Source: Candidatus Bathyarchaeia archaeon | GTDB taxonomy: Archaea; Thermoproteota; Bathyarchaeia; Bathyarchaeales; Bathycorpusculaceae | Assembly: GCA_050012755.1 (NCBI GenBank) | Contig: JBEKGO010000037.1 | Coordinates: 1-23,658, forward strand | DNA: 23,658 nt | Direction of reading: 5' to 3' | Part shown: positions 1,831-20,351 of the stretch, piece by piece | How positions within the stretch are numbered: position 1 is the stretch's first letter | Layout: every line of letters begins with the position of its first letter | Translations under genes and position numbers: made by a program | The notes under the pieces: model-generated | Told to the model about the DNA's origin: nothing | The model's database searches: none | The model's input: only the letters and a program-made list of their open reading frames with translations

Positions 1831-1930
1831 TTTTGAGTTGCTTTTTTGATCTAAAGCTTAAATTCTTTGCAGGTTGCGTCAAAAAACGTCAAGAATCGTC
1901 AAGAAACGTCAAAATTCGTCAAAAAAAGTC
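1831..1930 (+). repeat. Conserved leader plus 10-bp-period tandem array (copy A; six GTC cores, mostly CGTCAA)
   Basis: GTC at 1878, 1888, 1898, 1908, 1918, 1928. 1831-1881 aligns ungapped to 10276-10326 at 37/51 identity (counted by hand). Confidence 0.85.
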
Positions 1931-2166
1931 CAAAATACCTCTAGAAAAAATTGATTATGACATGCCATTAAGTCAAAAGAGACTTTCTAAAACACCACGG
2001 ACAATTTTGGACCGCTGGAAGGTCAATAAACTGAGAAAGTTCTGGAAAATAGTTTTTTCAAATATAGAAAACACCTTTTGCTAACCCAGTTCTAAAGCTG
2101 AGAAGCAAAAACGGTTATTAACAAGGAAACAAGATACGCATAAGCATAGTCAAGAGGAAAAATGCG

Positions 2167-3423: not shown

Positions 3424-4470
3424 TTATTTGAAAAGTAACTTTGCGTTTTTCCACTGGTCCAAAGCCAAGGATAAATAGCCGCTTGGGCTTCCCTGAAGTG
3501 AATAGAAAACGTAACAGAGGTAGCTGCATTCTGTGCAATTAGAGTAAGTTTCTCGTAATTGCTTGAATTGTTGGCTGTTCCATTTCTTAGGCAAATCGAA
3601 TATTGATGCTGCAGAATTGTGGCTATGGCATCCTCCAATTCTTCCTAAATGATCAATAACTAAGAAGTTGCTTAGCGCTTGGCATTTCCAGACCCTTCTA
3701 TCTTCCCCGAAGAGGCTTCTTACTGTTTTCAGAAGTTTGTTTGTCATGAGAATTTTTTTATTTTTCTTTTTCATTTCAATTAGAGAATTGCAGAGTTCAA
3801 TCATTGCTTGAGTATCCTTTATGACGTATTCATCGTCAGCTTTGCCAATCCTGAAAAGCTGTTTTTCATCCATTGAAAGGTCATACGAGTAAAGGCAGAA
3901 CCAGACTGGAATTGCTTTTTGGGTAAAATAATTAGTGATATCAACTATTTCATACATGTTTTTCTGTGAAATCGTTGGAGTAACACTAACGTTGACCCCC
4001 TCGTTTTGAAGGAATTCAACGGCTTCCATTGCCTTTTTCCAAGCACCTGGCACGTCTTTCATGGAATCGTTTTTTGATTCATCCAAACTATCTATCGAAA
4101 TTGCCACAAAATCGACGTTTCGCAATGAATCAATTTTTTCAGCAGCTAGGCTTCCATTATCACAAATAGTTGTGACAAAACTCTTTGAGGCATAATCAAG
4201 TATTTCACCGATGTCATCTCTCAATAACGGCTCTCCGCCTGATAAAACAAGATCAACAATACCCATTTTTTTTAGAACATCTAACCCTTTCTTTATTTCA
4301 GATGTTTCAAGTGCTCTTGGATCTTGTTCTTTCCAGACGTTGCAACCAGCACAGCGGTAGTTGCATTTTCTTGTAATTAACCATTGAGCGTGGTGAGGCT
4401 TACCGGGTGCAAGCGCGCGTGCTGCAATTGATGCTGCTTTTTTCATACCTGTCGTCAAATAAGTTGTCAC
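3424..4470 (-). CDS. Radical SAM protein with C-terminal SPASM/twitch-like Cys cluster
   Basis: CNYRCAGC (CxxxCxxC), SGGEPLLR, ISIDS, C-terminal C..GC...CTECSYLC. Confidence 0.9.
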   Translation of the reverse strand: MTTYLTTGMKKAASIAARALAPGKPHHAQWLITRKCNYRCAGCNVWKEQDPRALETSEIKKGLDVLKKMGIVDLVLSGGEPLLRDDIGEILDYASKSFVTTICDNGSLAAEKIDSLRNVDFVAISIDSLDESKNDSMKDVPGAWKKAMEAVEFLQNEGVNVSVTPTISQKNMYEIVDITNYFTQKAIPVWFCLYSYDLSMDEKQLFRIGKADDEYVIKDTQAMIELCNSLIEMKKKNKKILMTNKLLKTVRSLFGEDRRVWKCQALSNFLVIDHLGRIGGCHSHNSAASIFDLPKKWNSQQFKQLRETYSNCTECSYLCYVFYSLQGSPSGYLSLALDQWKNAKLLFK

Positions 4471-10151: not shown

Positions 10152-10275
10152 TTCCTTCATTTTGAGAACACTATGTAACGTAGCTCAAATTTTAACCCCA
10201 ATTTTCATAATTTAGATTTTGATGTTTATAATGTGAATTAGAAGAATATTTTTTTTAGGTTTTTTGTTCTTTGTT

Positions 10276-10390
10276 TTTTGGGTTGCTTTTCTGATTCAGC
10301 AGGTAAATTGGTTGCAGGTCGAGACATTATTTGACATTTTTTGACAATATTAGACAAAAATTGACATTATTTGACGTAATTTGACATTTA
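10276..10390 (+). repeat. Conserved leader plus 10-bp-period tandem array (copy B; seven GAC cores, mostly TTGACA)
   Basis: GAC at 10323, 10333, 10343, 10353, 10363, 10373, 10383; leader homologous to 1831-1881 in the same orientation and register. Confidence 0.85.
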
Positions 10391-10722
10391 GAAAGTTCAT
10401 AACCGTTTAATGCGAATGGTAATGCAACGCCACTATTTTTTGTTCTCTGGGGTTCGGATTGTTTTTTCGTTTAGGGTTTGTCAAGGCCCGTTTATATTCC
10501 CTAAATGCTTAGACGATGTAAAGTCAAGTTTATCAAAGCTAATCGTCTATTTTTTAGTTTATACTTTTTCCTTTAAATGTTCATCTTGTTTTGAGCGATG
10601 GTCTTTCGATGCTTTCTATTCAGGCTTAAACTTTCACGCTCCGCCAAACTGAACAGAGCAAGGATTTGAACCTCCACTCAGTGGAGATATCACCCACATT
10701 TCCTATTTTTAGACTAAAAGAA

Positions 10723-13509: not shown

Positions 13510-13698
13510 TCACATTTTATCTTTTACTTTTTTAGCTGCTTTCTTGCTTTCTTCAGCAACTTTTTTCCCAGCCATTTTAGCTTCCGCGGCTACTTTTTTT
13601 GTTTCTTCCGAAACTTTTCCGCCAGCTTTCTTGGCTTCAGCAGCAGCTTTCTTAGCCTCTTCCTCTACTTTCGTTTTTGCGTTTTTTATGGTTGACAT
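13510..13698 (-). CDS. Small Lys/Ala/Glu-rich repeat protein (LEA-like amphipathic helix)
   Basis: 62 aa with three ~18-aa repeats: KVEEEAKKAAAEAKKAGG / KVSEETKKVAAEAKMAGK / KVAEESKKAAKKVKDKM. Confidence 0.7.
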   Translation of the reverse strand: MSTIKNAKTKVEEEAKKAAAEAKKAGGKVSEETKKVAAEAKMAGKKVAEESKKAAKKVKDKM

Positions 13699-13748: not shown

Positions 13749-13990
13749 TTAGTTTTTCACTGTTTGGACAATACTCGATGATATGGCAATGAAAAAGTAG
13801 CAGAATTGCTAGTATCGATGGAACTTCTGGAATGGTTGGTGGTTGGTGAATCTTTTGCGGTTGAACTTGGAGTGCTTGTTGTACTAGTTGGCTGTTGGGT
13901 TGGATTGGTTGTTGGGTTGCTGGTTGGTATTTGGGTCGGGGCTGATGTTGGTGTGGGAGTTGGGATTGGAGTTGGAGTTAGAGCAGGATG
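13749..13990 (-). pseudogene. C-terminal remnant of a cell-surface protein (PT linker plus frameshifted PEF-CTERM-like anchor)
   Basis: PTPIPTPTPT... linker; after a one-base shift near 13840 it reads PTIPEVPSILAILLL. No N-terminal domain or signal peptide. Confidence 0.6.
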
Positions 13991-18234: not shown

Positions 18235-18254
18235 TACTTTTTGACAATGTTGAC

Positions 18255-18280
18255 CCTGCCAAAGTTCGTGCTTGGGCAGG
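18255..18280 (+). terminator. GC-rich hairpin downstream of alaX
   Basis: CCTGCCAAAG-TTCGTG-CTTGGGCAGG; 9 of 10 stem positions pair. Confidence 0.35.
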
Positions 18281-18451
18281 TAATCTTGTAAATAAATTCG
18301 GGGAATAGTTGCTGAAATTGTATTTGAATAAATACTCAGTTTTGCCTTGCTTCGAACAAAAAACACTAAAGCCAATCTTCTCATAGCCTACACACAAATG
18401 TTCTTCATTAGTGCAAAAGATTATAAACAAATCCAGCCTTGCACACCAACT

Positions 18452-18571
18452 ATGTCATACGATGCATTCAAATGTCCAAATTGTAACGAAAAATTTGCCG
18501 ACCCTAAACAACTCCAAGAACACAGTGTGAAAGTACACAAAGGGCAAACAAAAAGCAGAGTAGTTTTTTAA
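18452..18571 (+). CDS. 39-aa stand-alone C2H2 zinc-finger protein
   Basis: MSYDAFKCPNCNEKFADPKQLQEHSVKVH fits F-x-C-x2-C-x3-F-x5-L-x2-H-x4-H exactly; in frame with track ORF 18347-18571. Confidence 0.78.
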   Translation: MSYDAFKCPNCNEKFADPKQLQEHSVKVHKGQTKSRVVF

Positions 18572-19113
18572 AATTCTGTATTGGAATTTTCAAGAATTAA
18601 CACCCATTCAGAGTTAATATTGACTATATAGATTCTGTGATAACTATAATCTATTTGGAAATGCTACATAAGGGAAGTCCAGTAATATTTTTTTGGTGAT
18701 GGAACTGAAAAGAGAAAAAAAAGCTAAGCAAGAAGAAAAGAATCAAAGTGAAAAGCCGTTCTTTTTTAAGCGAATTTAATTTTTTAGAATGCAAAGAGGG
18801 GAGAAGATGAGCAACAAAATAAAGACAAAGAATGGTAATTCGGAATTGTCTGACTGAATGTTCACTATCGATTTTGACCCAGCCAAATCCAGATTCTAAA
18901 AGAGCATGGAAAAACTAAATATCTGGCCCTGTGGCGTGGTCAGAGCAATGGATACGGTGCAATAGCCGTTGTTAAAAGGCGTGCCTTCTGCAATACTTCT
19001 TATTATAGAATTTGAAGAACCTTTTATCAGCTTCAAATACATTGTATTGAATAGTAATAGTTAATAAGTAGTTTCTACTTACAAATTCGCATTAAGTATG
19101 GTGAGGTGCTAAG

Positions 19114-19242
19114 ATGCTATCTCGTGATTGTGACGGATGCGAAAGACAGATTTTTGAATGTAAACGTCGTTTTGCCCATGTTTGTTTAGGCGAGAAGGTT
19201 TTCTGTCCAGACGGCACAGCCCATCTAGTTGACAGCAAATAG
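19114..19242 (+). CDS. 42-aa Cys/His-rich small protein (putative metal binder)
   Basis: Strong SD GGTGAGGTG at 19100-19108; MLSRDCDGCERQIFECKRRFAHVCLGEKVFCPDGTAHLVDSK. Below the ORF-track size cutoff. Confidence 0.68.
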   Translation: MLSRDCDGCERQIFECKRRFAHVCLGEKVFCPDGTAHLVDSK

Positions 19243-19416
19243 TCTAGGTCAAAGCGTAAGGTCATTTCTCCAAAGGCTTTTCCTTATTTCTTGTATATTG
19301 TAAATTAGTAGAATTTAGTTAGACAACTCTGTAGTCAACTTAAGTGCGTGCTTCACGGTGAATATTCTATGGTTGTTTTCAGGTGAAAGCAGCGTCATGG
19401 GTTTCTTTTCACTTGC

Positions 19417-19647
19417 TCAGATGCCGATAAGTAAGTCGTGGCCGTCCCCTTTCACTTCGTAGACTGGTAAATCGTGAGTTTGTCCAGAGATTGCTTTCCC
19501 CGTTATTACGTCGAAGCTTGAAAAATGGCTAGGACAAGTAACAATTGTGTTATTCAAAGTATCCTTGCCTAGCATAGCACTCAGATGGGGGCATTTATCG
19601 CCGACGTCATAGAACTTGCCATCAACATTAGCGATCAGTAGAGTAAC
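19417..19647 (-). pseudogene. Rieske [2Fe-2S] ferredoxin lacking its N-terminus
   Basis: Hand translation: VTLLIANVDGKFYDVGDKCPHLSAMLGKDTLNNTIVTCPSHFSSFDVITGKAISGQTHDLPVYEVKGDGHDLLIGI*. CxH and CxxH are intact; in-frame TAG at 19648-19650 and no ATG/GTG/TTG before the first motif. Confidence 0.82.
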
Positions 19648-19658
19648 CTAGCCAACAA

Positions 19659-20233: not shown

Positions 20234-20302
20234 AATCTATGTCTTAGATTTGCTGCTCTAAGTGTTAGAGCTGTTTTAGAGTTGGTATTCTAAATGTTAG
20301 GG
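20234..20302. promoter_or_regulatory. Array of palindromic sites, consensus TCTA(A/T)NNNTTAG(A/G)
   Basis: AATCTATGTCTTAGATT (20234-20250), CTCTAAGTGTTAGAG (20256-20270), TTCTAAATGTTAGGG (20288-20302), plus a half-site at 20276; located in the divergent intergenic region. Confidence 0.65.
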
Positions 20303-20351
20303 CTATATCCGTCACTCACTTAATATGTTTCAAAAAATTGGAGGCAAAAAA

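Follow-up and report, generated by a model that had tools for sequence, protein, structure and literature searches.

The 23,658-nucleotide stretch of DNA analyzed here (the window) is a segment of an archaeal chromosome that carries housekeeping genes and, in two of its intergenic spacers, copies of a non-coding element of ∼125 bp, in which a leader of ∼60 bp is followed by an array of short tandem repeats. A Pfam scan of the 23 open reading frames (ORFs) of the window identifies SecY with its Sec61 plug, an EMC3/DUF106 membrane protein, cytidylate kinase and a P-type ATPase, as well as PAS histidine kinases, AlaX and flavodoxins. Homologues of the window SecY that are 83–87% identical to it carry the NCBI names Candidatus Bathyarchaeia or Bathyarchaeota. 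The first copy of the element (copy A) lies in a 510-bp spacer (1657–2166) between secY and the EMC3/DUF106 gene, which are both on the plus strand and are followed by cmk. This spacer lacks adk (adenylate kinase), which in many archaea lies between secY and DUF106. The second copy (copy B), 8.4 kb away, lies in the 571-bp spacer of a convergent gene pair that encodes a TPR protein and an EamA transporter.

Both copies were first noticed in a reading of the letters alone (hereafter the sequence-only reading), which reported an ungapped match between two leaders and, at the same offset behind each, a strict 10-bp array followed by TAGAAA. We reproduce both observations. Positions 1831–1881 align without gaps to 10276–10326 at 37 of 51 positions, and when this 51-mer is slid over both strands of the window its top non-self score is 37, with the runner-up at 30. 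None of 4000 composition-matched Markov-1 controls reaches 37: the maximum is 32 among the 2000 drawn with the intergenic composition around copy B, and 33 among the 2000 drawn with the leaders’ own T/G-rich composition. Tandem Repeats Finder (TRF) reports a period of 10 at 1877–1935 in copy A (5.9 copies) and at 10323–10388 in copy B (6.6 copies), with zero indels in each. Four GWC triplets spaced 10 bp apart are found in seven places in the window, each within one of the two arrays, and in none of 100 dinucleotide shuffles. The GTC triplets of copy A start at 1878, 1888, 1898, 1908, 1918 and 1928, and the GAC triplets of copy B at 10323 through 10383. Both arrays begin at an identical leader offset, and TAGAAA stands 3′ of each (1942–1947 in copy A, 10390–10395 in copy B).

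The element also occurs in other genomes. We scanned a genome collection with a pattern that describes the array only, five GWCA at 10-bp spacing, and obtained at least 122 loci. Among the matches listed, 120 of 122 array loci are unrelated, mostly bacterial tandem repeats; only two, L058 and L109, are from Bathyarchaeia, and both carry the leader directly before the array. A loose regular expression for the leader marked six loci (L034, L045, L056, L058, L093 and L109), of which a hidden Markov model (HMM) upheld L058 and L109 alone, and an HMM of all six leaders found no leader in the other 120 listed array loci. L058 contains one element and L109 three tandem elements in the same orientation within 0.5 kb (L109_1, L109_2 and L109_3), with leader starts 201 and 163 bp apart, which brings the DNA copies to six in three Bathyarchaeia genomes. 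The searches are reciprocal. An HMM built from the four external leaders finds, in 325 kb, the window copies alone, copy A at 1829–1876 (E 9.6e-7) and copy B at 10264–10322 (E 1.3e-6), with the next match at E 8.8; the reverse HMM, built from the two window leaders, recovers the four external copies at E 0.0014–0.027, with the next at 5.1. Searches of phage and plasmid collections by blastn with copy A yielded at most a chance match of 29 nt (E 0.5).

Alignment of the six DNA copies with MAFFT reveals a common anatomy. The alignment is free of gaps over ∼108 columns, roughly from column 12 to column 119, even where it passes through T-runs and tandem repeats, and this lack of any internal gap indicates that the spacing is constrained. 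Read from its 5′ side, the element has a T/G-rich extension, followed in order by box 1 (consensus TTTGTGTTTTGGGTTGCTTTTTTGAT), a centre, box 2 (consensus GGTTGCAGGTTGA), the array and a purine-rich end, RGAAAA. The two boxes are of a GGTTGC type, and the TTGC of box 1 lies 29 bp from the TTGC of box 2. The centre between them, ∼13 bp long, is poorly conserved and in about three of the six copies contains a TATA-like word (CTTAAAT or CTTTAAC) after purines. Box 1 includes a run of five or six T residues in four of the six copies, with more T-runs upstream. The array directly abuts box 2, and the offset from the leader to the first array unit is equal in all six copies. Any two leaders agree at 37 to 51 of 61 positions. 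The closest pair (51/61) is formed by L058 and L109_2, from different genomes, while neighboring leaders within L109 share 37–43 of 61, with L109_1 and L109_2 at 39/61.

There are five to seven units per array, or three in L109_2, and the final one or two are degenerate. The units are built on a core, TTGAC(R), with four to five A/T bases between cores. Class I units, found in window copy A and L058, read GTCAA plus an A-rich linker; class II units, found in window copy B, L109_1, L109_3 and all of the library copies described below, read TTGACA with a linker of A and T. One class is the reverse complement of the other, and the central GWC triplet of both (ATC in L109_2) stands in equal register to the leader. 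Core orientation is uniform inside each array and, across arrays, takes either direction relative to the leader. L109_2 is the sole copy that was found without selection on the core; its units, ATCTAAAAAC, lie in the shared register and are identical to the copy A unit GTCAAAAAAC at 8 of 10 positions. Because the classes are reverse complements in a shared register and the L109_2 unit matches so closely, all arrays seen are variants of one unit. Linkers consist of A and T only; depending on the copy, A predominates, T predominates or the two are mixed, and hence the linkers have no strand-specific composition; most units contain an A/T-only run of 4–7 bases. L109_2 also departs from the family in its leader, where an 8-bp palindrome, GTTGCAAC, replaces GGTTGCAGGTTGA in box 2 ahead of the short, three-unit array; it could be either a variant or a copy in decay. 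Box 2 of L109_1 (276–285) and box 2 of L109_2 (483–492) are perfectly complementary over 10 nt (ACCAGTTGCA / TGCAACTGGT).

In the window, all parts of both copies read on the plus strand. Leader homology begins ∼12 bp upstream of the start first reported, at 1819 and 10264 according to the nhmmer envelopes. In copy A, a weakly conserved T/G-rich 5′ extension (1819–1830; envelope of the six-copy leader HMM, alignment columns 12–23) leads into box 1, TTTTGAGTTGCTTTTTTGAT (1831–1850), the best conserved block, which includes the first GGTTGC-type box. The least conserved part, the centre (1851–1865, with the TATA-like CTTAAAT at 1857–1863), and box 2, TTTGCAGGTTGC (1866–1877), which abuts the array, were, like box 1, delimited on the six-copy alignment. 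The array (1878–1937; TRF, shuffles and unit table) comprises six 10-bp class I units, one of them with GTCCA in place of GTCAA, and is followed by a degenerate seventh unit and the 3′ end motif CCTCTAGAAAAAA (1938–1950; alignment and unit table). Copy B has the same layout: a T/G-rich 5′ extension (10264–10275, within the nhmmer match 10264–10322), box 1, TTTTGGGTTGCTTTTCTGAT (10276–10295; alignment and external-copy HMM), a variable centre (10296–10310; alignment), box 2 (the GGTTGCAGGTCGA region, 10311–10322; alignment and unit table), an array of seven 10-bp class II units, (TT)GACA plus A/T linker (10323–10392; TRF, pattern and unit table), and the 3′ end motif TAGAAAGTT (10390–10398; alignment).

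Additional copies are hidden in protein collections, where the element has been mistaken for coding sequence. Using as query the spurious minus-strand ORF that runs through L109_3, we found one match (P0121) in a word-indexed protein library and seven at E≤0.001 in an exhaustive search of a representative library. Five of these seven library ORFs (P0121, P0122, P0125, P0126 and P0127) contain a translated array followed by a translated leader, that is, the minus strand of the element annotated as ‘hypothetical proteins’ of 71–125 amino acids (aa). Together, the library ORFs add six full leader stretches and one partial one, and two ORFs contain two tandem elements, so that tandem clusters in the same orientation are seen in L109, P0122 and P0127. 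The match between P0121 and L109_3 is confined to the element, and the flanks differ. The two remaining ORFs, P0123 and P0124, have no leader-like stretch. P0123 is a predicted protein of 200 aa whose residues 1–85 form eight copies of a 10-residue repeat, CQILSDxVRY, which is the expected ORF reading of a 10-nt TGTCA-type array of at least 24 units; longer, leaderless arrays with a 10-nt period may thus exist elsewhere. The element is therefore also a practical feature for annotation, given that gene callers make artefactual hypothetical proteins of some copies.

We conclude that the leader-plus-array family is real and spans Bathyarchaeia genomes. The sequence-only reading had named what would overturn it: an absence of further leader-plus-array copies in this or related genomes, and controls that equal the leader alignment. 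Such copies exist in L058 and L109, others lie in the five mis-called ORFs, and the controls fall short.

The surroundings of the elements have little in common. Those in L109, like copy B, lie between convergent genes, and at least one gene 3′ end points at the element in all four loci (window A, window B, L058 and L109). The flanks of the six copies share nothing up- or downstream, except that the leaders of L109_1 and L109_3 are both prolonged by GT-rich sequence. A 74-aa ORF adjoining the L109 elements has no Pfam match at E≤0.1. L058 encodes, at 3434–3943 on the minus strand and 1.4 kb from its element, a PadR-family winged-helix regulator with a C-terminal TRASH/zinc-ribbon domain; we found no equivalent near the other copies and attach no significance to it.

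Several familiar explanations do not fit. The element is not protein-coding, as inspection finds TGA or TAA in every frame of the class II arrays, and a search of the protein library with the 94-aa ORF that covers copy A found no relative. Like CRISPR (clustered regularly interspaced short palindromic repeats), the element has a conserved leader, a fixed junction and a repeat array in which degeneracy is greatest at the distal end. Unlike CRISPR, its period is exactly 10 bp, a core of 5–6 bp plus 4–5 A/T bases rather than a repeat of 23–50 bp, with no information-bearing spacers and no repeat hairpin; there is no Cas domain among the 23 window ORFs in the Pfam scan and no CRISPR direct-repeat match in Rfam. 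Iterons of plasmid and viral origins are typically 17–22 bp long, compared with 10 bp here. They resemble the arrays as helically phased direct repeats beside a conserved sequence, with cores that can differ between replicons, but the element occurs in several copies per 24 kb, with three in 0.5 kb in L109, among housekeeping genes and with no rep or orc1/cdc6 adjacent. The initial statements that the element is neither a CRISPR nor an origin of the origin recognition box (ORB) type agree with these results: several copies occur per locus, and the window contains no initiator gene (rep, orc1/cdc6).

The Borg elements of Methanoperedens likewise carry short, A-rich tandem repeats in archaeal intergenic DNA. 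Borg repeats, however, are perfect, differ from locus to locus, come in many unit lengths and have no leader in common. In the present family, different loci and genomes have the unit length, the core and the leader in common. The class II core TTGACA is also the bacterial −35 hexamer; archaea, however, lack sigma-70. Two further patterns were discarded. Solitary TTGAC/GTCAA words near the elements number four in the 510-bp spacer and two in the 571-bp spacer, against about one per 375 bp window-wide, and are unconvincing, and a set of upstream ‘inverted iterons’ was dropped because the distances were inconsistent.

We tentatively favor the reading that the element is a double-stranded DNA platform for a sequence-specific, oligomerizing binding protein, to which we assign a probability of roughly 0.4. 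It rests on the invariant spacing, the lattice of about one helical turn that joins the leader boxes and the array, the core that can be flipped in register and the strand-neutral A/T linkers. Inversion of the core with helical phase kept fits recognition of a duplex rather than of an RNA sequence. From the observed family, architecture, indel-free spacing and core inversion we infer binding by a protein, its oligomerization and a biological role. In such a mechanism, a sequence-specific protein would read the leader boxes and/or the iteron cores, and copies of it, or of a partner, would align cooperatively on one face of an intrinsically bent array, one unit per helical turn. The coated array would then be a fixed nucleoprotein landmark between genes, which could act as a transcriptional roadblock or in silencing, in chromosome organization or in segregation. 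In a wedge model evaluated over 60-bp stretches, array B ranks first and array A third in curvature in the window, and the L109_3 array ranks first in its locus. The proposal in the sequence-only reading that short cores on one helical face form a platform for a polymerizing protein has gained indirect support from the inverted in-register core, the indel-free spacing and the lack of RNA structure.

The closest known systems are operators and centromeres of plasmids. Related arrays include the heptads bound by the omega protein of pSM19035 and the parC iterons of R1 and pSK41, which are bound by ParR. In parH/OF of plasmid TP228, 4-bp boxes alternate with regular 4-bp AT-rich spacers, and the ribbon-helix-helix (RHH) protein ParG binds as one dimer per box, coats the array cooperatively and tolerates inversion of the boxes (PMC3130281). 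Such RHH arrays resemble the present ones in their short cores (4–7 bp), A/T-rich spacers and many consecutive units; the unit is 10 bp here, compared with 8 bp in parH. Total length (∼60–100 bp) and, as predicted for the element, use of one helix face are likewise shared. In the element, whole arrays occur in either orientation relative to the leader, and the two orientations are never mixed within one array. RHH arrays differ from the element in that the latter has a bipartite leader of ∼60 bp, an orientation that is uniform per array, dispersed and tandem chromosomal copies, and no parA/parM or centromere-binding gene nearby. A Pfam scan of the ORFs of the window, L058 and L109 found no ParA/ParM/TubZ or RHH domain. 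The putative binder would be expected to be a small protein of RHH, winged helix-turn-helix or similar type.

A number of points weigh against a protein-binding platform. The Pfam scan of the window, L058 and L109 singled out no binding protein and no gene family common to the four loci. Unlike plasmid centromeres, the copies are dispersed on a chromosome and form tandem clusters with no partition genes alongside. The TATA-like word after purines in about half of the leader centres, and the absence of plus-strand T-runs of four or more from four of the six arrays, mean that the array may be transcribed from the leader. The L058 array is modestly curved (0.948, against a locus median of 0.979), in a wedge model whose parameters are provisional. 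The sample is small and biased: there are six DNA copies, the four external ones from loci picked by a scan that demanded GWCA cores and gives no guide to copy number or taxonomic range, and library copies that are known from translation only, through a class II query that detects in-frame copies only. Given this seed and mode of detection, the core conservation and indel-free spacing of the library copies are partly so by construction.

Transcription of the array is the basis of the best surviving alternative, which we nonetheless think unlikely, namely that the element is a family of small non-coding RNA genes. The leader would be an archaeal promoter, with a B recognition element (BRE) and TATA box in the centre or the T-run, and the array an unstructured transcript of 60–70 nt that would offer multivalent binding to, or soak up, an RNA-binding protein, or else present an antisense seed several times over. 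The TATA-like words resemble words upstream of window genes, most arrays are free of plus-strand T-runs, the tandem clusters in L109, P0122 and P0127 resemble clusters of small-RNA genes, and the convergent regions that hold copy B and the L109 elements have no protein-gene promoter for the leader to serve. Yet no part of the leader is less conserved than the TATA-like centre, and the word is missing in L058 and L109_2. Inversion of the core between copies would yield RNAs without a common sequence. Runs of five to six T residues are signals for transcription termination in archaea, and the plus strand of the copy B and L109_3 arrays carries internal runs of T6 and T5.

Structural searches for such an RNA were negative as well. 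Rfam 15 has no window match at gathering score and, at E≤5, none in 1650–2170 and none overlapping the elements in L058 or L109. The RNAalifold consensus fold of the plus strand has six weak pairs, none covarying, and that of the minus strand has none; 12 single-sequence folds have z-scores of −1.71 to +2.36 relative to shuffles. C/D box small RNAs of archaea carry pairs of C (RUGAUGA) and D (CUGA) boxes that flank guides of 10–12 nt; on inspection, none of the six copies contains TGATGA, and one contains CTGA.

It is also conceivable, if quite improbable, that the element is structural DNA without a dedicated binder. In this explanation, phased A/T tracts would form a bend of ∼65 bp that fixes the position of archaeal histones or other chromatin proteins, or keeps them off, and marks a boundary between transcription units. 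In the wedge model, arrays A and B both rank in the top three stretches of the window for curvature. Archaeal nucleosomes are reported to have a footprint of ∼60 bp, to follow a 10-bp rule of mutually offset WW and SS dinucleotides and to exclude A/T-only pentamers (PMC3691661). The 10-bp alternation of A/T and G/C over the 60–70 bp of the arrays fits this rule and resembles nucleosome-positioning sequences over ∼60 bp; nearly every unit, however, contains an A/T-only pentamer, and the specific, conserved core word and the attached leader likewise set the arrays apart. Curvature alone leaves the conserved leader boxes and the TTGAC core unexplained, and the modest curvature of the L058 array runs counter to it.

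A non-autonomous mobile element, akin to miniature inverted-repeat transposable elements (MITEs) or short interspersed nuclear elements (SINEs), that moves between and within Bathyarchaeia genomes is a distinctly improbable origin; the array would then supply subterminal recombinase sites or be an insertion tail. It would account for the unrelated intergenic contexts with no common neighbor, for leaders that can be more alike across genomes (L058 and L109_2) than between adjacent copies (L109_1 and L109_2), for the resemblance of P0121 to L109_3 across the element alone, for the tandem pile-ups and for the secY–DUF106 spacer without adk. Against this, the ends of the element in the four loci have no terminal inverted repeats, only short and inconsistent pairs, which accords with the earlier statement that it is not an insertion sequence end. 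No target-site duplication is evident at the boundaries of the six-copy alignment, the ORFs of the window and the loci encode no transposase, integrase or reverse transcriptase, and leaders within one genome are only 62–67% identical, at 37–41 of 61 positions, with no sign of recent bursts. Finally, a terminator or insulator module whose leader and array T-runs halt RNA polymerase from either side is very improbable: gene 3′ ends do face the element in all four loci, box 1 of four of the six copies and its upstream sequence carry T-runs, and several arrays carry T5–T7 on one strand, but T-runs in the L109_1 array do not exceed three bases on either strand, simple T-runs need no GGTTGC boxes, 10-bp lattice or conserved core, and other convergent gene pairs in the window lack the element.

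Three other regions of the window drew attention. At 20240–20304, a 32-bp unit occurs twice (78% match, TRF) with internal dyads TTAGAG…CTCTAA, within a 189-bp promoter region from which a 158-aa membrane-like ORF and a DUF996 gene diverge; it looks like a duplicated operator. The 1.4 kb from AlaX to a minus-strand ORF (18235–19658) contain a single ORF of at least 60 aa (18347–18571, plus strand) and several short Cys/His-rich frames (e.g., from the ATG at 18452, and around 19115–19243), which could be small zinc-binding proteins or gene remnants. Imperfect repeats of GTTGG/GGTTGGATTGCT type (TRF periods 6, 7 and 12) occupy 13833–13983, in a 634-bp spacer upstream of a PAS histidine kinase gene. 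A 62-aa Lys/Ala/Glu-rich ORF at 13510–13698 (minus strand) has a weak ApoLp-III-like Pfam match (E 0.035).

Short cores with A/T spacers on a helical lattice are already known from plasmid operators and centromeres. What appears to be new is the leader-plus-array grammar, its dispersal and tandem clustering on an archaeal chromosome and its conservation across Bathyarchaeia species; a literature search by titles and abstract openings found no description of such an element. The protein-binding platform can be extended into a system of chromosome-wide nucleoprotein landmarks, in which a dedicated nucleator on the bipartite GGTTGC leader would load an oligomerizing partner on the TTGAC iterons, so that the modules would be centromere-like or mark domain boundaries. 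We regard this extension as rather improbable; if true, it would be an archaeal, dispersed counterpart of the plasmid parC/parH segrosomes, built from single or tandem modules whose grammar of leader and array is not known from other systems.

Bathyarchaeia are among the most abundant archaea of sediments and are essentially uncultured, and to our knowledge almost nothing is known about their non-coding DNA. A conserved, precisely spaced element that crosses species therefore offers a handle on the chromosome biology or regulation of these organisms. If a protein coats the arrays, it would constitute a new sequence-specific chromatin or segregation system in archaea, one that phylogenetic co-occurrence could reveal and that could be studied in vitro with no need to grow the organism. 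If the arrays are transcribed instead, they would represent a new class of repeat-bearing small RNA.

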